Shown here piece by piece: positions 2,144 through 20,317 of a stretch of DNA of 64,000 nucleotides (position 1 is the stretch's first letter; each line of letters opens with the position of its first letter). The notes beneath the pieces were generated by a model. The model was not told the origin of the DNA, ran no database searches, and saw only the letters and a program-made list of their open reading frames with translations. The stretch spans positions 22,142 to 86,141 of the forward strand of contig JAGLXN010000017.1 of NCBI GenBank assembly GCA_023132875.1. Reading direction: 5' to 3'. A program made the position numbers and the translations under genes. The DNA is from Candidatus Parcubacteria bacterium. GTDB lineage: Bacteria > Patescibacteriota > Minisyncoccia > JAHIHE01 > JAGLIN01.

Positions 2144-3025
2144 ATGATGAAAAAAACAAGCTTAGGAACAGGATTGTCTTCTTTGATTCCAAACAAATTA
2201 AATAAAGAAAATAATACTCCGTTAGAAAAGAAAAAGTTTTCTAGTTCTAATGAAGTGGTTAAAATTCCGATTGAAAATGTTGCTCCTAACCCAAATCAAC
2301 CAAGATATTATTTTGACGAAGATAATTTAAAAGAACTATCAGAATCAATAAAAGAGCATGGCGTTATTCAGCCCATACTTGTTACGAAAATAGGCAATAA
2401 TAAATATGAGCTTATAGCTGGTGAAAGAAGGCTTCAGGCCACAAAACTGGCAGGAATTAAGGAAATCCCGGCAATTGTCCGATTAGCAACAAATCAAGAA
2501 AAATTAGAACTTGCTCTTATAGAGAATGTCCAAAGGCATAATCTTAACCCGATTGAAGAAGCAAAAGCATATAAAAAACTTCAGACTGAATTTAATTTAA
2601 CTCAGGAAGAAATCGCAAAAAAAACGGGAAAGAGCAGGTCTGCGATTGCAAATATAGTAAGACTTTTAGATCTGCCAGTTGAAATTCAGCGGGGAATTAT
2701 TGAAGAAAAAATAACCGAAGGGCACGCAAGAGCAATTATTGGACTTAAAAATCCGGAAAAGCAACGGGCTTTGTATGAATTGATTTTAAAAAATAATCTT
2801 ACCGTTAGAGGTACTGAGAATAAGGCTAGAGAAGTTACCATACATACTCATAAAAGAAAAATAATAAAACAAACCGATTCGTACATCCAAGATCTAGAAG
2901 ACAAAATCCAACAAAAGCTCGGCACAAAGGTCCAAATTAAAAAAAGAGGCACTTCAGGAAAAATTACAATTGACTTTTTTTCAGAGGAGGAGTTTGAAAA
3001 GATAATCAAGATATTAAATCGTTAA
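2144..3025 (+). CDS. parB: ParB/Spo0J partition protein
   Basis: ParB box GVIQPILV...LIAGERRLQA and an HTH region; located directly after parA. Confidence 0.9.
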   Translation: MMKKTSLGTGLSSLIPNKLNKENNTPLEKKKFSSSNEVVKIPIENVAPNPNQPRYYFDEDNLKELSESIKEHGVIQPILVTKIGNNKYELIAGERRLQATKLAGIKEIPAIVRLATNQEKLELALIENVQRHNLNPIEEAKAYKKLQTEFNLTQEEIAKKTGKSRSAIANIVRLLDLPVEIQRGIIEEKITEGHARAIIGLKNPEKQRALYELILKNNLTVRGTENKAREVTIHTHKRKIIKQTDSYIQDLEDKIQQKLGTKVQIKKRGTSGKITIDFFSEEEFEKIIKILNR

Positions 3026-3169
3026 ATAGCAAAATATATCACCCATTACTATCTTTGCTTAATTCTAGCTAAAATTTTGGCTATTGACATATAATCTTAT
3101 TGTGATATTATAATGCTAATAATTTTGCCCGCATAATTTCGGGGCCTTTTTAATTGATAAAATAAAAAA

Positions 3170-3628
3170 ATGGTTAAGCAATTTATAACAGAAGAAGGTT
3201 TAAAAAAATTAAAAGAAGAGCTTAATTATCTTAAAACAGAAAAAAGACAAGAAATATCAAGAAGGATTCAAGCCGCAAAAGAATTAGGAGATTTGAGCGA
3301 GAACGCGGAATATTCAGAAGCAAAAGAACAGCAAGCGCTTAATGAAGGAAAAATCGCAGAAATGGAAGAAACACTTAAAAACGCTCAGACAATAGACAAC
3401 GATCATAATTCTAATATAGTTAGTGTTGGCTCTACTATTACAATAAAAAACGAGGGGAAAAAGCGAACTTATACAATAGTCGGATCAAATGAAGCAAATC
3501 CTTCCGAAGGAAAAATTTCAAACGAAACCCCCCTTGCTATATCTTTTTTAGGACATAAGGTTAGTGAAAAAGTTGAAGTTGAAACGCCAAAAGGAAAAGT
3601 GGAATATAAAATTATTAAGATAGAATAG
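3170..3628 (+). CDS. greA: Transcription elongation factor GreA
   Basis: N-terminal coiled coil with the GDLSENAEY motif; 152 aa. Confidence 0.85.
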   Translation: MVKQFITEEGLKKLKEELNYLKTEKRQEISRRIQAAKELGDLSENAEYSEAKEQQALNEGKIAEMEETLKNAQTIDNDHNSNIVSVGSTITIKNEGKKRTYTIVGSNEANPSEGKISNETPLAISFLGHKVSEKVEVETPKGKVEYKIIKIE

Positions 3629-4066
3629 TCTGATTATTTTTTGATTATAAATAAAAATTTAAGGAGATGAGAATATAAAAAATATAGAAAGCGATCCAAT
3701 TGATCTCTCGAGATTACCGGAGGGAAAATACACAGTAGTCGGAAAAGAAGAGAATTCTTCTTCTACTACTGCTATAGTAGAAAAAGTAAAAGATGGTAAT
3801 TCTTGTATACATAAGATTCGTTTTCCTATGTTTATAGGGTATCGTTTTGCTATGAAAAACACCTTTGAAATTAATGAAGAAGGAAAGTTAATGTGTTCAA
3901 AAAATTTACAAATATAACTCTGTGAAAAATAAAGCAGAGTATTTTTTTGACTAATTCTAAATAAAATAGTATTATTTATAAAGAATGTTGTTGCTTAAGG
4001 ACGACATTTACAAATATCCGCAAATATCATTTTCAGGCGGTTTTTAAAATAAATTTAACCAAACTA

Positions 4067-6145
4067 ATGATAAATGAACTAAAACAAGCTCGGCTTGATA
4101 AGCTGAATAAAATTAGAGAAGCAAGCGTAGATCCGTATCCCGCGAAATGCGGAAAAACGCATGCCATAAAACAAGCTCTTGATAATTTTGATAATTTTTC
4201 TAAATCAGAAAAGGAGATTGTTTTGGCAGGCAGAATTATGGCTATTCGCGGCCATGGTGGATCAACTTTTATTAATATTGAAGACGGCTCCGGAAAAATA
4301 CAGGTTTATTTAAAAAAAGACGAGCTCGGAGAGAAAAAATATCAATTTTTGGAGAATTTTGATTTAGGAGATTTTATTCAAGCAAAAGGCAGTTTATTTA
4401 TTACTAAGAAGGGCGAGAAAACTTTATTAGTCCAGAATTACAAAATTTTAACCAAGTCGTTGTCTCCTCTTCCGGAAAAGCGGCATGGCTTAAAAGATGA
4501 AGAAGAAAGGCTCAGAAAAAGATATTTAGATATTTTATTTGACTCGGAACTAAAAAAAGTATTTATTAAGAAAAGCATTTTCTGGAATTCAGTGCGCGAG
4601 TTTATGGTTGCAAAAGGATTTTTAGAAGTGGAAACGCCTGTTTTGGAAAATACTCCCGGAGGAGCCGATGCGAAACCATTTATTACTCATCATAACGCTT
4701 TAGACATTGATGTATATCTGCGAATCTCAGCGGGGGAACTGTGGCAGAAAAGATTGATGGTTGCCGGATTTGAAAAGACTTTTGAAATTGGAAGAATTTT
4801 TAGAAACGAAGGAATGGATGCTGAGCATTTACAGGATTATACGCAGATAGAATTTTACTGGGCCTACGCCGATTATAAAATGGCGATGGAATTAGTAAAA
4901 GAAATGTATTGCTATGCCGCTGAAAAAACTTTTGGAACTTTGGAGTTTCAAATTAAGGACTTTAAAATCAATCTTGGGAAAGAATGGAAGCGTTATGATT
5001 ATCGGGAAGAAATTAAAAAATTTACCGAAGTAGATATCTTGAAGACAGATTTAGATGAAATCAGAAAAAAATTAAGCGAACTGAAAATTAAATATGAAAA
5101 AAATTTAAATTTAGCGAGAGGAATTGACAATTTATGGAAATATTGCCGTCGAAAAATTGCCGGCCCCGGATTTCTTGTAAATATTCCCGTTATTGTTTCT
5201 CCTTTAGCGAAAAAACTTGAGGATAATCCAGAATTAGCGCAAAGATTTCAGCCTATTATCGCCGGCTCGGAAATGGGTAATGGTTATAGCGAGTTAAATG
5301 ATCCAATTGATCAGACGGAAAGATTTAAAGAGCAAATGAAATTACGGGAGGCAGGCGATGAAGAAGCGCAGATGATGGATAAAGATTTTATAGAAGCGCT
5401 GGAATTTGGCATGCCCCCGACAACCGGATTTGGTGTTTCGGAAAGGCTATTTTCATTTCTAATGAATAGACCGATTAGAGAGTGCCAGACTTTTCCGCTA
5501 ATGCGGCCGAAAGAGCTAAAAGTAAAAAATCATGAATCAGAAAAAAACAAAGTGGAAAATTATAATTTGGGAATTAATTCAAAGCAAGCTGAAAAAATTC
5601 TTGATAAATATATTAAAGATCCCATAACAAAACTTCATTGCATTGAAAGCAAGGCAATAATGAAAAAGACCGCCAAGCAATTAGGTGAAAACGAGGAGAA
5701 ATGGGGGATTGTCGGCTTGCTTCATGATATAGATTGGGAGTTGACAAAAAATAATCCAGGTGAACATTGCGTTAAAGCGATTAAGATATTAAAAAACGAA
5801 GGAGCTAATGATTTTTTAATTGAAACAATTGTTTCGCATGGTTATGGATGCGTAGATAATAAAAAATTTGAAGGCAAGAAAAGAACCACGAAAATTCAAT
5901 ATGCTCTAGCCGCATCGGAAACTTTAACTGGATTGATCATTGCTTCTGCTCTTATACAGCCCGACAAAAAGTTAGACAGCCTTTCTCTCAAATCTCTAAA
6001 AAAGAAGTTTAAAAGCAAGGGTTTTGCGGCTAATTGCGATAGAGAAATAATTAAAGAATGTGAAAAAATTGGAATAAGTCTGGATAAGTTTTTAGAAATT
6101 GGATTGAAAGCGTTACAGGAAATGAGTGAAGAAATTGGATTATAA
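4067..6145 (+). CDS. lysS: Lysyl-tRNA synthetase (class II, about 480 aa) fused in one ORF to a C-terminal HD-domain phosphohydrolase (about 190 aa, YqeK/HDIG-like)
   Basis: LysRS anticodon-binding and catalytic motifs (FRNEGMDAEHLQDYTQIEFYWAYADY; C-terminal ...FPLMRPK). It continues without a stop into H...LLHDIDWE...H...H, an HD signature. Confidence 0.85.
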   Translation: MINELKQARLDKLNKIREASVDPYPAKCGKTHAIKQALDNFDNFSKSEKEIVLAGRIMAIRGHGGSTFINIEDGSGKIQVYLKKDELGEKKYQFLENFDLGDFIQAKGSLFITKKGEKTLLVQNYKILTKSLSPLPEKRHGLKDEEERLRKRYLDILFDSELKKVFIKKSIFWNSVREFMVAKGFLEVETPVLENTPGGADAKPFITHHNALDIDVYLRISAGELWQKRLMVAGFEKTFEIGRIFRNEGMDAEHLQDYTQIEFYWAYADYKMAMELVKEMYCYAAEKTFGTLEFQIKDFKINLGKEWKRYDYREEIKKFTEVDILKTDLDEIRKKLSELKIKYEKNLNLARGIDNLWKYCRRKIAGPGFLVNIPVIVSPLAKKLEDNPELAQRFQPIIAGSEMGNGYSELNDPIDQTERFKEQMKLREAGDEEAQMMDKDFIEALEFGMPPTTGFGVSERLFSFLMNRPIRECQTFPLMRPKELKVKNHESEKNKVENYNLGINSKQAEKILDKYIKDPITKLHCIESKAIMKKTAKQLGENEEKWGIVGLLHDIDWELTKNNPGEHCVKAIKILKNEGANDFLIETIVSHGYGCVDNKKFEGKKRTTKIQYALAASETLTGLIIASALIQPDKKLDSLSLKSLKKKFKSKGFAANCDREIIKECEKIGISLDKFLEIGLKALQEMSEEIGL

Positions 6146-6151
6146 TTTTTT

Positions 6152-6601
6152 ATGTCTCAAACTAAAATTACAAATACAAAGCAGATATCGTACAACAAAA
6201 TTAAAGTGATGACATTTGGAACTTTTGACATTTTTCATCCGGGACATGAAAGTTTTTTGAAGCAAGCGAGAAAGTTTGGAGATTATTTGATTGTTGTTAT
6301 TGCCAGAGATAAAACAGTTGGAATAGTCAAGAAAAGATTTTCACAAAATAATGAAATTAATAGGCAGCGGGCTGTAGTAAAAAGCAATTTAGCAGATAAG
6401 GTAATTCTTGGAAGCTTGAAAGATAAATATCAAGTGATTAAAAAATATCAGCCGGAAATTATTTGTCTGGGTTATGATCAAACAGTATTTATAGAAAATT
6501 TACGGGAGAAGTTAAAAGAGTTTGGCATGGAAAAAACCAAGATTGTAAAATTAAAGCCTTATTGTTCAGAGAAATATAAATCGTCTAAATTGAGAGATTA
6601 A
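6152..6601 (+). CDS. Cytidylyltransferase-like HxGH nucleotidyltransferase (RibL-type FMN adenylyltransferase-like; NMNAT-like not excluded)
   Basis: GTFDIFHPGH motif; the true start is probably at Met 6209 (MTFGTFD). Confidence 0.55.
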   Translation: MSQTKITNTKQISYNKIKVMTFGTFDIFHPGHESFLKQARKFGDYLIVVIARDKTVGIVKKRFSQNNEINRQRAVVKSNLADKVILGSLKDKYQVIKKYQPEIICLGYDQTVFIENLREKLKEFGMEKTKIVKLKPYCSEKYKSSKLRD

Positions 6602-6760: not shown

Positions 6761-8014
6761 ATGTTAGATATAAAATTTATAAGAGAAAATCTGAATATTG
6801 TAAAGGAAGAGATTAAAAAAAGAGGGATGAAAATTGACTTAGATTCTTTTCTTGATTTAGACGAGCAAAAAAGAGAACTTCAACAGGAAGTGGAAAATTT
6901 AAGAAAAAAACAGAATGAGGCAAATAAAACTATTTCTCAAAGTAAAGATAAAAAGATTATTTCGAAAATGAAAGAGGTTAAATTAAAATTGTCTGAGTTG
7001 GAACCAAGGTTAAAAAATTTAGAGAAAAAACTAAAAGATATTTCACTACAACTACCGAATATAACTCATGAAAGTGTGCCAGTCGGATCGGATGAATTGG
7101 GAAATGTTGTTGTGAAAAAATGGGGAGAAAAACCAAAGTTTGATTTTTCGCCGAAAGAGCATTTTGAAATAGAAAGCGTTAAAAATTTAATTGACACCAA
7201 AAGAGGCGCAAAGGTTTCAGGGACGAGATTTTGGTATTTGAAAGGCGACTTGGCAAGATTGGAATTTGCTCTAATGCAATACGCTCTTGAATTTTATTCC
7301 AATAAAGGATTTGAACCGATGATTGTGCCAATGCTGGTCAGAGAGCCGGCGATGTATGGAACAGGATTTTTTCCGGCGGAGAAAAATGAAATTTACAATG
7401 TTAACGCTGATGAGGATAATTTATTTTTAGTCGGAACAGCGGAAGTTCCACTAGCGGCTTACCATATGAATGAAGTTTTGGATTTAGAAAACGGACCTAA
7501 AAAATATATGGGCTATTCAAGCTGTTTTCGCAGGGAGGCTGGAACTTACGGCAAAGATATAAAAGGGATTTTGCGCGGGCATCAATTTAATAAAATTGAA
7601 ATGTTTATTTTTTGTAAACCGGAAGAATCTTGGAATTTGCATGAAGAATTATTAAAATACGCGGAAGAATTTTTACAGTCTTTGAATTTGCATTATCAAG
7701 TTTTAAATATGTGCACGGGCGATATCGGCGCGCCGAACGCAAAAAAATACGATATTGAAACGTGGATACCGGGGCAAAATAAATACCGCGAGACGCATTC
7801 TTGTTCTAACGATACTGATTTTCAAGCGCGGAGATTAAATTGTAAGTTTACTGATAAGGATGGAAAGAAAAAATTTGTCCATACTTTAAATAACACCGGT
7901 TGCGCTGATCTGCGAGTTTTGATCGCCATTCTTGAAAACTACCAACAAAAAAACGGCACCATTATCGTGCCGGAGGTTTTAAGGAAATGGATAGGAAAGG
8001 ATGTTATTGAATAA
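6761..8014 (+). CDS. serS: Seryl-tRNA synthetase
   Basis: N-terminal coiled-coil arm; class II motifs FRREAG and GTAEVPL. Confidence 0.9.
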   Translation: MLDIKFIRENLNIVKEEIKKRGMKIDLDSFLDLDEQKRELQQEVENLRKKQNEANKTISQSKDKKIISKMKEVKLKLSELEPRLKNLEKKLKDISLQLPNITHESVPVGSDELGNVVVKKWGEKPKFDFSPKEHFEIESVKNLIDTKRGAKVSGTRFWYLKGDLARLEFALMQYALEFYSNKGFEPMIVPMLVREPAMYGTGFFPAEKNEIYNVNADEDNLFLVGTAEVPLAAYHMNEVLDLENGPKKYMGYSSCFRREAGTYGKDIKGILRGHQFNKIEMFIFCKPEESWNLHEELLKYAEEFLQSLNLHYQVLNMCTGDIGAPNAKKYDIETWIPGQNKYRETHSCSNDTDFQARRLNCKFTDKDGKKKFVHTLNNTGCADLRVLIAILENYQQKNGTIIVPEVLRKWIGKDVIE

Positions 8015-9317: not shown

Positions 9318-10898
9318 ATGTCAATTATTTTAATTACAATATTAATATTATTTCTCATCAAAATTGTCCGTGATAGCTTGTTTTGTGTTTGGCTTTGGCA
9401 GGTGAAAGAATATCGGATAGATCGGATGAAATCTTATTTGAGAGACGAGAAAAGTATTATTTATAAAAATATTAATTATTTATTTGTTTTGATTTTATTT
9501 TTTATTTGCATTTTGGTTCCACAGCCATTCGGGACTATGGAACTAATGATTCTTATTTATTTAACGCTTTTATTTTTTACTTTTACTTTTTACCAAATTT
9601 TAATAGAAATAAAAGATAGAATTTTAAAAAGACCAAAGTTGACTTTTAAGATAATTCTAATATTTTTCATAGAAGCCACCTTTTATTTTTCGTTCTTTGT
9701 ATTTTACTGGATTCCCGCATTCGCGGGAATGACAAGACCTGCGGTCTTGATCCTACTATTACTATTTATTTATCTCATCACTCCTTTTTTAATTGCTACA
9801 ATTATTTTGTTAACAAATCCATTTTTTAATTTCCAAAAAAGAATAATAAAAAAAAAAGCCACCGAAAAAATGAAGGGATTGAAAAAAGTAAAAGTTATCG
9901 GTATTACGGGCAGTTACGGAAAGACAAGCACGAAAGAATTTCTATATGCGATATTGAACCAGAAATATAAAGTTGTAAAAACAGAAGGGAATAATAATAC
10001 GAATATCGGCGTGGCTTATACTGTTTTAAATAAAGTGAGTGATAAATATGATTATTTTATCTGTGAAATGGGCGCTTATAAAATTGGCGAAATCGCAGAA
10101 ATTTGTAAAATAGTAAAACCGGAAGTTGGAATTTTAACAGGAATTAACGAACAGCATATTGATTTATTTGGGTCTATTGAGAATACGGTTAAAGCGAAGT
10201 TTGAATTGATTGAGGCGTTGCCAGAGAACGGATTGGCGGTAATAAATGAAAAATTAAAAAATCAAAATGGAAAATTACAATTTAAAATTAAAAATGTTAA
10301 ATATTTTTCTTTGAACAATGTAAATGATATTAAAGTTTGTCAGGATTATGTAGGGTTTAATTATAAGAACTATAAATTTAAAACTAATCTTCTTGGCAAG
10401 CATTATATAGAAAATATTTTATCTGCTATAATGATAGCAGAATGTTTGGGAATAAGTTTGGATGAAATTGCAAAAGCAGTAGAGAAAATAAAACCGACTG
10501 AATTTATGATAAGAAAATTATACGGTCCAAATAATTCTATTTTTATTGATGACAGTTATAGCGCAAATCCTGATGGCGTAATCGCGGCGCTTGATTATTT
10601 AGATGAAGCGTATCAAGATTATAAAAAAATAATTGTTTTTCCAGGGATAATTGAATTGGGAAACAAGTCAAAAGAAGTGCATCAAAAATTATTTAGTAAA
10701 ATAGATAAAATTTGCGACTTTGCTTATATACTGAATACAGAATACAGAATACAGAATACTAATAACAAATTTGTTTTTGAGAAGGATTTTAATAAAGTGG
10801 CGAGAATGCTGAAAAATAATCTCAACGAAAAATCTGTTGTTCTTTTTGAAAGCCGGGGAGCGGGAGTGGCGATGGGAAAAGTAAAAATAGAAAAATAA
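9318..10898 (+). CDS. MurF-like Mur ligase with an N-terminal polytopic membrane domain of about 190 aa
   Basis: Mur ligase P-loop GITGSYGKTSTKE and C-terminal DDSYSANP signature; the N-terminus is strongly hydrophobic. Confidence 0.7.
   Translation: MSIILITILILFLIKIVRDSLFCVWLWQVKEYRIDRMKSYLRDEKSIIYKNINYLFVLILFFICILVPQPFGTMELMILIYLTLLFFTFTFYQILIEIKDRILKRPKLTFKIILIFFIEATFYFSFFVFYWIPAFAGMTRPAVLILLLLFIYLITPFLIATIILLTNPFFNFQKRIIKKKATEKMKGLKKVKVIGITGSYGKTSTKEFLYAILNQKYKVVKTEGNNNTNIGVAYTVLNKVSDKYDYFICEMGAYKIGEIAEICKIVKPEVGILTGINEQHIDLFGSIENTVKAKFELIEALPENGLAVINEKLKNQNGKLQFKIKNVKYFSLNNVNDIKVCQDYVGFNYKNYKFKTNLLGKHYIENILSAIMIAECLGISLDEIAKAVEKIKPTEFMIRKLYGPNNSIFIDDSYSANPDGVIAALDYLDEAYQDYKKIIVFPGIIELGNKSKEVHQKLFSKIDKICDFAYILNTEYRIQNTNNKFVFEKDFNKVARMLKNNLNEKSVVLFESRGAGVAMGKVKIEK
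9709..9753. repeat. Repeat family B hairpin (GGATTCCCGC-ATTC-GCGGGAATGAC plus AGACC-TGCG-GGTCT) inserted in-frame in the murF-like ORF
   Basis: Palindrome read directly; translates to IPAFAGMTRPAV. Confidence 0.6.
10733..10760 (+). repeat. In-frame heptamer tandem array (GAATACA x3, GAATACT) in the murF-like ORF
   Basis: Seen directly. Confidence 0.7.
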
Positions 10899-18270: not shown

Positions 18271-18681
18271 TTTAGCTTCTTAGATTATAGCTTCTTAGCT
18301 TTTTAGGAATTATTTCAGGAATTTTTCAGGATGACAAAATAGAAATGATTTTTTATATTTTACGACATAAAGTTATAATATTTGAAATTAATAAAAGAAC
18401 TTTATGATAAAGATTTGGGCTTAATAATAAAAAGCAATTAATATAATAAAAAAAGATAAACCTAACAACTATACAGAAAAATTTATCCAGAAAAGGGATT
18501 TATCGTTTTTATTAGAAACTAAAGCTAAATTTAAGAACTAATGTCGTAAAAGCTACCTTGTGCGACATTACCACTAACTTTTTTTATCCGCTTCCCTAGC
18601 GGATTTTATGTATATATAACTGAATTGTTAATGTATGTCTTTATTATAATACTTTTAAAATTTGTGTCAAGAATACATTAT

Positions 18682-19035
18682 TTAAATAAACTTATTTATA
18701 AGTGCTCCAAATACTATAAGCGCTAAAGCGAAAATAAGCGAAAATAGTTTATTTATATTATGTTTAAAAACATCACGATCTGTTTCTTTTATTAAGTTTT
18801 TTAGCCCACCTTTTATTTTTAAATCTTTTTCAATTAACAATAAAAAAGTATCTGAAATCATCTCCCTCATTTTTGTTGCTTTTTCTGCTGTTTCACAAAG
18901 CGTGTCTGCTATTTTTTCGTTATTTCCAAACTTATCTTCTAATTGCTCAATCCTTTTCTTAACATTAATAATATCCTCACCATGTTTATCAAGGGATGTT
19001 GTTAGTTTATCTGGATCAAAATCATTCTTGGCCAT
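18682..19035 (-). CDS. Hypothetical tail-anchored protein
   Basis: 117 aa with a C-terminal TM segment. Confidence 0.4.
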   Translation of the reverse strand: MAKNDFDPDKLTTSLDKHGEDIINVKKRIEQLEDKFGNNEKIADTLCETAEKATKMREMISDTFLLLIEKDLKIKGGLKNLIKETDRDVFKHNINKLFSLIFALALIVFGALINKFI

Positions 19036-19061
19036 AAGGATTATTAATTAAGTTATTACTT

Positions 19062-19328
19062 TTATTCTGGTTTTTTTTTATCTTCAACAATAAGCCCCTC
19101 TCCTGGAATTAAAGCCTTTTTTTCATTTTTTTCTTGAATATAAAGAGTGCTATTTTCTGCTTGAACCATTACAGCAAGAGCAAATCTAAACACACCTTCT
19201 TTATCTTTAAATTTCCATTTTTCCTTAATCTTTTCAAGAACCGACAAATCACCATTATTTATATTAAATAGTAAACCTTCTAATTCTGCGATACTTTTAC
19301 TATCCTTTTTAATTTCATTTATTGCCAT
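19062..19328 (-). CDS. Hypothetical protein
   Basis: 88-aa ORF. Confidence 0.35.
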   Translation of the reverse strand: MAINEIKKDSKSIAELEGLLFNINNGDLSVLEKIKEKWKFKDKEGVFRFALAVMVQAENSTLYIQEKNEKKALIPGEGLIVEDKKKPE

Positions 19329-19459
19329 ATTTGTAATAAAATTAATTATTTATAAGCCAATAACCATGCAATAATTCTTACTAATTTCATTATAACACCT
19401 TTTGTAACACTTGACTATACAATTTTAACATTTTTATATTATTAGTCAATAATAATTAC

Positions 19460-19666
19460 TCATAAAAACATTTTCGCTCTTTTTTCTGCTTCTTTTGAAT
19501 TTAGTCTCAAATAAGAAAAAGCAGATATTGGATTGTTTTCGCTATGACCTAAAATAAATTGAATATCTTTAACTGTTCCGGATTTATCAAGAATATTATG
19601 AGCTTTTGCATGTCGGAATGAATGCGGGCTTATTTTTCTCTCAATCCCCGCTTCTCTGACAAATAT
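19460..19666 (-). pseudogene. Remnant of a tyrosine recombinase/integrase (C-terminal catalytic box only; no N-terminus, no start codon)
   Basis: Minus-strand translation VREAGIERKISPHSFRHAKAHNILDKSGTVKDIQFILGHSE... gives the HxxRH and LGH boxes; an upstream in-frame stop precedes it. Confidence 0.65.
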
Positions 19667-19731
19667 CTATATGAATAAACAATAATACCATTATATAGAT
19701 TTATTTATAATATATTTATCTAAAATAAAAA

Positions 19732-19758
19732 GTTGAGGTTTCATGTTTGAACCTCAAC
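19732..19758. terminator. Hairpin GTTGAGGTT-(9)-AACCTCAAC with flanking T/A runs
   Basis: Seen directly; overlaps the stop of ORF 19741..20160. Confidence 0.35.
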
Positions 19759-20160
19759 AGTTTTTTCTATCCCATATATTTTGGCAAGATCAAAGTACTC
19801 CCCATTAACCCAAAGCTTTACTGTCACATATATTATTTCGTCTCCAGGTATGTTAATAACATTTTCTAAATCACCATTATCATTTTTAGAAAACATTACT
19901 TCCATATGGACACTATTTTTATTAAGTATCTCCCCATAGGTTTTCCTAGTGCTAATTTCTGATATTTTAGCATGTATATTTTGGTTTTCAGAGAATTTAC
20001 CAGACACTTCTATAATAGAATACAACATTGTTCTATTGTCAGTTTTCTCAACTCTTATTGTAAGAGGAAGATCACTGAATTCCTCTTTGTATTTTATTGC
20101 ATCGTTGTTACTGTCTATCCATACCATTACCACGATTGCTAAAATTGCAATAATAGTCAC
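19741..20160 (-). CDS. Hypothetical membrane-anchored protein
   Basis: N-terminal TM segment, 139 aa. Confidence 0.4.
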   Translation of the reverse strand: MTIIAILAIVVMVWIDSNNDAIKYKEEFSDLPLTIRVEKTDNRTMLYSIIEVSGKFSENQNIHAKISEISTRKTYGEILNKNSVHMEVMFSKNDNGDLENVINIPGDEIIYVTVKLWVNGEYFDLAKIYGIEKTVEVQT

Positions 20161-20317
20161 TGCTCCAAGAATATTTTCTGTTTTCTTCTTAATAAGAATC
20201 CCTCCAGCATTAAGATTGTTTCATATATACAATCAATAATATACCAATAACATATTAAATAAAAAACGTCAATCCTATTAAAGTTAATTTAATTTAATAA
20301 ATCCTCCTCTGTAATAG

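Follow-up and report, generated by a model that had tools for sequence, protein, structure and literature searches.

Recurrent fusion of lysyl-tRNA synthetase to an HDIG-type HD domain in Patescibacteria: a candidate arrangement for Ap4A turnover

Diadenosine tetraphosphate (Ap4A) is increasingly held to be a true alarmone that also supplies 5' caps for RNA. The hydrolases that control its effects are ApaH in Gram-negative bacteria and YqeK in Firmicutes. Lysyl-tRNA synthetase (LysRS) is the main cellular source of Ap4A, and its aminoacyl-adenylate yields Np4N dinucleotides on reaction with ATP or a different NTP (PMC13627108). The gene described here lies in a 64,000-nucleotide (nt) stretch of DNA from Candidatus Parcubacteria bacterium (contig JAGLXN010000017.1, positions 22,142 to 86,141; this whole stretch is referred to as the window). 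It encodes a class II LysRS that continues in frame into a C-terminal HD domain.

Several described systems resemble parts of this protein. YqeK (COG1713) is a symmetric Ap4A/Np4N hydrolase of about 190 amino acids (aa) from the HD superfamily, and its six metal ligands are H21, H50, D51, H83, H109, and D127 (PMC8177086; PMC13627108). Its genomic partners are nadD and rsfS, and its proposed role is the removal of Ap4A as a by-product of aminoacyl-tRNA synthetases. The pattern H...HD...H...H...D is diagnostic of dinuclear HD enzymes, whereas phosphodiesterases such as PgpH, which converts cyclic di-AMP (c-di-AMP) to pApA, and the HD-GYP proteins carry an HH doublet (H...HD...H...HH...D) (PMC8177086). 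In the bacterial glycyl-tRNA synthetase beta subunit (GlyRS-beta) an HD domain is internal, rigidly integrated and degenerate, having lost the HD dyad (HD to SK in E. coli) (PMC8464048). The long Rel/SpoT homologs join an HD hydrolase to a synthetase of the same signalling nucleotide, (p)ppGpp, in one polypeptide. Mycobacterial LysX (MprF-LysRS) is a precedent for joining a class II LysRS to an accessory enzyme, there an N-terminal membrane lysyl-phosphatidylglycerol synthase. That partner uses Lys-tRNA, a product of LysRS, and differs in these respects from the HD domain.

The LysRS part of the window's protein is complete. Residues 3-482 cover the NCBIfam lysS model from end to end (model positions 1-488), matching NF001756 at 550.7 bits (cut-off 468) and TIGR00499 at 497.3 bits (cut-off 427.6). 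Pfam assigns residues 52-128 to PF01336 (E 4e-16) and residues 144-479 to PF00152 (E 8.5e-68). An earlier reading of the window's sequence, called here the original prediction, held that the lysS frame runs on past the usual LysRS end at ...FPLMRPK482, and the NCBIfam models and the unbroken reading frame bear this out. It also read an HD domain with the motifs H, LLHD, H, and H in the tail. These correspond to H524, H553-D554, H567, and H591, and, of the 210 residues past the LysRS end, 523-591 match the HDIG model TIGR00277 at 33.5-36.4 bits (cut-off 27.6). The Pfam HD model (PF01966) scores 18.5-21 bits on the window's copy, slightly under its cut-off of 22, and is matched by 28/28 family members (best E 1.1e-9).

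The fusion is genuine, and LysRS and the HD domain are made as one polypeptide. The exact 692-aa protein is found on four contigs from different assemblers, including an 831-kb ENA scaffold and an independent Logan contig. A diverged strain from another sample (locus L089, SAMN18200499; the window's scaffold derives from SAMN18200500) shares 97.8% DNA identity over 1791 nt, with 39 substitutions, no indel, and the frame kept. Its linker differs from that of the window by one change, Ser to Leu. No stop or frameshift is found at the junction in either strain, and the same architecture recurs in related genomes, with a continuous lysS-HD open reading frame (ORF) in 19 of 80 species-representative loci. 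A false joining of two adjacent genes through assembly or sequencing error is thus practically out of the question, even though all 120 closest tail homologs of a first search are free-standing (193-252 aa), the closest relatives have separate genes 60 nt apart, and runs of A6 and A7 lie within the junction: four contigs, a diverged strain with the same frame, and full-length fusions in 19 further species contradict it.

An in-frame GTG at 5552 aligns with the start of free-standing HD homologs. A separate HD protein made from this internal start is conceivable but unsupported: the ORF is continuous in two strains; no Shine-Dalgarno-like sequence was visible by eye at the junction, where no dedicated scan was made. 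In the AlphaFold2 (AF2) model both domains are confident, while the linker region (residues 476-498) has a predicted local distance difference test (pLDDT) score below 50 and the full-length predicted template modelling (pTM) score is only 0.57. This suggests that the HD domain is flexibly tethered to LysRS and does not form a composite active site with it. A fixed docking of HD on LysRS is likewise unsupported by the model, which as a monomer built from an alignment of only 26 sequences is weak negative evidence on docking.

The arrangement recurs well beyond the window. The survey of HD-family genes covered 80 species-representative genomic loci. In the 19 with a continuous ORF the protein has 687-719 aa (846 aa in L020). 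A further nine have lysS at most 120 nt upstream of the HD gene, and in another 13 lysS lies 0.3-2.9 kb upstream. A query spanning the junction retrieved fused proteins at 43-59% identity. The 120 best homologs of the tail by itself are free proteins of Patescibacteria, nearly all 193-207 aa long and up to 73% identical. In the closest split relatives (L001-L003) the order is greA, lysS (497 aa), a 60-nt spacer, HD (199 aa), and serS; in L001, lysS terminates with ...PKVAN and a stop codon, and the HD gene begins 60 nt further on. The fusion is derived from this neighbouring lysS-HD gene pair, which is conserved in Patescibacteria, through loss of the lysS stop and the spacer.

Profile searches gave the same picture from the side of the HD domain. 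Among the 150 top-scoring cluster representatives, about 15 have 656-973 aa with HD at the C-terminus. All seven scanned representatives of ordinary length among them (683-752 aa) are LysRS-HD proteins, two longer ones contain an extra inserted domain, and the 656-aa representative is a PAS-PAS-GGDEF-HD protein. LysRS is the partner in 16 of the 20 multi-domain representatives scanned, with truncated copies and two triple fusions counted. The linkers, which could be delimited in 15 of 20 fused proteins, measure 0-31 aa (155 aa in L020, where the linker contains an inserted domain) and share no sequence with one another. On a tree of 85 HD domains the fused or unfused character requires at least four changes, so by this tree fusion or fission occurred at least four times. 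Moreover, three relatives (L090-L092) have a LysRS 91.5-91.9% identical to that of the window, ending in FPLMRPKSF and a stop codon (484 aa), and carry no HD gene on the contig. The module was therefore gained or lost over short time scales.

In locus L087 (JAJYHZ010000001.1) the slot is occupied by a class I LysRS. There greA (2877-3326) is followed by the class I enzyme (PF01921; 3395-4981) and the HD gene (4950-5579), the last two ORFs overlapping by about 30 nt. This looks like an in situ non-orthologous displacement of class II by class I LysRS with the neighbourhood kept. The presence of a class I enzyme in the same greA-LysRS-HD slot indicates that what the HD gene is tied to is the function of LysRS, whichever fold carries it out. 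Since the linkage has recurred in evolution, a functional connection of the HD domain with LysRS is well founded.

By its profile matches the HD module is a member of a large uncharacterised HDIG-type family. Its cluster representatives number 3419 at E<=1e-3, of which 148 reach E<=1e-30, and it occurs in no fewer than 441 species genomes, the majority from Patescibacteria, with others from Syntrophobacteraceae. Copies in Syntrophobacteraceae and other deltaproteobacterial metagenome-assembled genomes, including one on a 5.3-Mb contig, show about 60% identity to those of the Candidate Phyla Radiation (CPR). The loci of this Syntrophobacteraceae and deltaproteobacterial set (L037, L050, L051, L055, L058, L059, L067, L075, and L083) have no lysS linkage. 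ROS/MucR regulators stand upstream at four of the 80 loci, which we assume to belong to the deltaproteobacterial group. The pattern in this whole set suggests either horizontal transfer or unusually strong conservation.

The metal site appears intact in the family members compared. H524, H553, D554, H567, and H591 are invariant in 76/76 HD domains from fused, free, and other architectures, and the residue at 618 is Glu in 68 of them and Asp in the other 8. With all six ligand positions retained in the two-metal pattern, the fused HD domain is very probably an active enzyme. No solved structure was found for the family, and the members seen bear generic functional names only. Searches of PDB sequences, whether by the tail itself or by a profile of 28 sequences, returned chance matches only (VP1, caspase). 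When 28 members were compared with curated profiles, the closest were the generic HDIG model, TIGR00295 (archaeal), the HD domain of RNase Y, and PRK12703, an HD domain fused to aTrm56. TIGR00295 is matched by 28/28 members (best E 6.5e-7) and PRK12703 by 25/28 (best E 3.2e-7), both far below the family cut-off, and the RNase Y HD profile is matched by 28/28. TIGR00295 and the aTrm56-fusion HD are thus the nearest curated profiles, yet both are uncharacterised and allow no transfer of function. Foldseek gave no match to the HD domain below E 1e-3. The best structural match was PgpH (12.5; 152), followed by the HD domain of bacterial GlyRS-beta (12.4 and 12.1; 151-158). HD-GYP, HDOD, and alarmone hydrolases matched lower than these two, and YqeK gave 10.6 and 9.8 (about 122).

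The original prediction had called the tail YqeK-type. Its HDIG character stands with the TIGR00277 match, while the assignment to YqeK does not hold: no YqeK model was among the NCBIfam matches of the 28 members at E<=1, and the nadD-yqeK fusion model PRK07152 was weakly matched by 7/28 only (best E 0.004). Solved YqeK chains in the PDB matched the family profile at E 0.4-0.5. An hhalign comparison with four authentic YqeK sequences from the PDB gave 52% probability over 50 columns that include the first His and the HD dyad only, leaving the H83/H109/D127 region of YqeK unaligned. The two proteins do agree in superfamily, in size, in the 29 residues that separate the HD dyad from the first His, and in the role proposed for them. 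The six conserved residues of the HD module (H524, H553, D554, H567, H591, and E/D618) are of the types expected for a motif of the YqeK class (H...HD...H...H...D(E)), with the later ones putative as ligands. They differ in the spacing of the later ligands, which follow the dyad at 13 and 37 residues here and at 32 and 58 in YqeK, in the genomic partner, which is lysS here, and in structure, since YqeK is less similar to the HD module than PgpH or GlyRS-beta.

The other HD classes fit no better. Identity to PgpH-type and HD-GYP proteins is about 17%, and membership in that class is ruled out, as the HH doublet, the seven-transmembrane receptor module, and the GYP motif are all lacking. The likeness to the GlyRS-beta domain is in fold only. 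In contrast to that domain, the HD module keeps its dyad and ligands, sits at the C-terminus on a flexible tether, and occurs as a free-standing protein too; intact ligands, a disordered linker, and free-standing homologs rule out membership in this type.

Genomic context gives clues to the substrate. Genes that recur between lysS and HD or flank HD encode Nudix, MazG, CYTH, Ham1, Maf, and YfbR-like HD proteins. In three loci the gene immediately upstream of HD encodes AlaRS; in six, serS is the gene immediately downstream. AlaRS and SerRS are class II synthetases that make Ap4A too. An NYN RNase stands between lysS and HD in L015, and other partners of the HD family include FtsY, AMMECR1, and a beta-propeller. 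Some fusions contain a third domain: LysRS-DUF2000-HD occurs in L020 (3042-5582, 846 aa) and in P0129 (L008, 6001-7476), LysRS-B3/4-HD in P0281 (973 aa), and LysRS-HAD-HD in P0194 (918 aa). B3/4 is a PheRS-type editing fold. DUF2000 is taken to be PTH2-like; the literature searches returned nothing relevant on it, and its insert gave only a marginal PDB match (2gax, E 0.078). A LysRS with editing-like inserted domains would be unusual by itself. A (di)nucleotide substrate is favoured for the HD domain by the PgpH match, the PAS-PAS-GGDEF-HD member, and the nucleotide hydrolases among the neighbours.

From this, it is tentatively proposed that the HD domain turns over the Ap4A or Np4N made by the attached LysRS, a reading to which we give somewhat less than an even chance. 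On LysRS, lysyl-AMP would react with ATP or another nucleotide to yield Ap4A and related Np4N or Ap3A. The two-metal HD site (H524, H553/D554, H567, H591, and E618) would then hydrolyse this nucleotide polyphosphate by-product of the synthetase. The tether would fix the hydrolase in 1:1 stoichiometry near the source, so that hydrolysis on site limits the build-up of the dinucleotide, as the HD domain and synthetase of Rel/SpoT do for (p)ppGpp. The same reaction would recycle adenylates, and the organism probably relies on salvage for its nucleotides. The likeness to Rel is one of function only and stands or falls with the Ap4A hypothesis; Rel has a different synthetase fold and allosteric coupling between its domains, and LysRS-HD has no predicted interface. 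A broader proposal is possible but doubtful. In it, the HD family would form an unrecognised class of bacterial Ap4A/Np4N hydrolases beside ApaH, YqeK, and Nudix, and LysRS-HD would be a bifunctional, Rel/SpoT-like enzyme that sets Ap4A at its source.

A number of points weigh against turnover of Ap4A by the HD domain. The family has no member of known activity, and the substrate is assigned from context alone. The roles of H567, H591, and E618 as ligands are putative, being taken from conservation and not from model coordinates. What the family seems to have in common with YqeK is the core of the superfamily and the kind of metal motif, not family membership. LysRS does not need the HD domain, which is dispensable for the synthetase itself, as its relatives in L090-L092 illustrate. 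Class I LysRS may make no Ap4A at all, which weakens L087 as support for Ap4A specifically. No lysS is found near 39 of the 80 loci, about half of the family's genes; together with the Syntrophobacteraceae copies and the FtsY, AMMECR1, and beta-propeller partners, these loci indicate that the substrate may be more general than a product of LysRS. Moreover, the triple fusions with B3/4 and DUF2000, the RNase Y and aTrm56 profiles, and the near-top GlyRS-beta match point towards tRNA or RNA.

The first of these two directions leads to a general house-cleaning or alarmone hydrolase, acting on (p)ppGpp/(p)ppApp, c-di-AMP/pApA, or non-canonical (d)NTPs, with the lysS link left by operon inertia and genome compaction. 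Loci without lysS, neighbours that are mostly generic nucleotide hydrolases, a flexible tether with no predicted interface, and the absence of HD from the locus in 92%-identical relatives are all in keeping with it. We nevertheless consider it rather unlikely. Several deep lineages have fusions, with linkers of separate origin, the tree calls for at least four state changes, LysRS is the commonest partner, and the slot persists when class I LysRS replaces class II. In addition, neither greA, serS, nor any other housekeeping neighbour was found fused to HD in the data examined.

The second direction leads to tRNA. HD domains of bacterial CCA-adding enzymes have 2',3'-cyclic phosphodiesterase and phosphatase activities and serve in tRNA 3'-end repair. 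The HD module could similarly act on tRNA or aminoacyl-tRNA, by 3'-end repair of this kind or by contact with the acceptor arm, which the GlyRS-beta HD domain makes, as a quality-control add-on for tRNA(Lys). The RNase Y and Trm56-fused profiles among its nearest relatives, the NYN RNase in L015, and a link kept with LysRS of both classes agree with such a role, and the triple fusions LysRS-B3/4-HD and LysRS-DUF2000-HD would back it. If true, it would represent a new trans-acting quality-control or repair module on an aminoacyl-tRNA synthetase. It is, however, unlikely. Mere binding would leave unexplained why all ligands are kept, given that GlyRS-beta has lost its dyad (PMC8464048). The net charge of the HD domain is only +4, not markedly basic, many of the neighbours (Nudix, MazG, CYTH, Ham1, and Maf) are hydrolases of free nucleotides, and one family member lies within a PAS-GGDEF signalling protein. 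As for the B3/4, DUF2000, and HAD inserts, they may be no more than other genes picked up from the same operon.

Neither a LysRS-HD fusion nor Ap4A metabolism in Patescibacteria turned up in full-text searches of the literature. The components, class II LysRS and an HD-superfamily hydrolase, are of known kinds; what appears to be new is their recurrent joining, together with the clue to function that it offers. As a Rosetta-stone link the fusion provides such a clue for an HD family of at least 441 species, and it is a testable candidate for Ap4A handling in the very large Patescibacteria/CPR radiation. The link was hidden by annotation, since the proteins are named only 'lysine--tRNA ligase' or 'HDIG domain-containing protein'.

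The gene that follows the fusion begins 6 nt past its stop codon and encodes a small nucleotidyltransferase (NTase) of the CTP_transf_like family (PF01467) with the motif FHPGH. Its best PDB match is an archaeal protein of 143 aa (3glv, E 2.4e-19), cytidylyltransferases for ethanolamine phosphate and glycerol 3-phosphate come next, and it is closest to rfaE-domain II, TagD, and RibL-type enzymes. Homologs are labelled FAD synthetase (many, by JGI or NCBI, and widely so in Patescibacteria), adenylyl/cytidylyltransferase, or with generic names. No NadD model was among the NCBIfam matches listed for the NTase at E<=0.01. Judged by these matches it is probably an FMN adenylyltransferase; it looks like the archaeal RibL-type enzyme in a bacterium with a reduced genome. 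Of the RibL/NMNAT-like character once suggested for it, the RibL side is favoured by 3glv and the FAD synthetase names, and the NadD side is not.

The NTase is probably only a syntenic neighbour. A homolog is present within the locus in 18/80 cases and directly after HD in 4/80, and serS directly follows HD or the fusion in L001-L003 and L007. In L090-L092 the NTase lies 20 nt downstream of lysS with no HD between. Inconsistent adjacency to HD and the lysS-NTase order in HD-less relatives place the NTase in the lysS-serS syntenic block. The analogy with the yqeK-nadD pair drawn in the original prediction falls with these counts and with the missing NadD match. A nadD-like partner was accordingly rejected in favour of a RibL/TagD-like NTase that follows lysS even without HD.

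Table 1. Coordinates of the fusion gene, its parts and its neighbours in the window.
Feature	Position	Strand	Remarks
LysRS-HD fusion ORF	4067..6145	+	unbroken, 692 aa, stop codon included
Class II LysRS module	4073..5512	+	residues 3-482; OB anticodon-binding domain 52-128, catalytic core 144-479
Linker ELKVKNHESEKNK	5513..5551	+	residues 483-495; in place of the stop codon and ~60-nt spacer of split-gene relatives
HD (HDIG-type) metal-dependent phosphohydrolase domain (predicted)	5552..6142	+	residues 496-692, 197 aa
Putative HD ligands	H524 5636-5638; H553-D554 5723-5728; H567 5765-5767; H591 5837-5839; E618 5918-5920	+	
Small nucleotidyltransferase, RibL/TagD-like	6152..6601	+	149 aa, PF01467; co-transcribed context
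greA	3170..3628	+	Pfam GreA_GreB_N and GreA_GreB; upstream member of the greA-lysS-HD-(NTase)-serS block
serS	6761..8014	+	Pfam Seryl_tRNA_N and tRNA-synt_2b; downstream member of the conserved block
Promoter-like site TTGACT-17-TATTAT	3947..3975	+	consensus scan, 10/12 positions; pattern match only

The promoter-like stretch TTGACTAATT..TAAATAAAATAGTA is also found upstream of the fused gene in L012. In the window it lies in the gap between greA and lysS (3629-4066), which at 438 nt is unusually long and is comparably long in L001 and L002. This gap holds a 67-aa ORF on the minus strand (3659-3862). As for a regulatory leader RNA, the gap gave no Rfam match and no conservation beyond the promoter-like site.

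Two further features of the window stand apart from the fusion. At about 18300-20300 the coding strand and the GC skew both switch, with plus-strand genes up to 18270 and minus-strand genes from 20318. The cumulative GC skew has its maximum near 18 kb, where a 2-kb gap contains no ORF of at least 150 aa. Finally, a Mur-ligase-family ORF (9318-10898, 526 aa) has, in front of Mur_ligase_M and Mur_ligase_C, an N-terminal extension of some 170 aa that is strongly hydrophobic and probably spans the membrane, and the same architecture was also called in L004 and L006.

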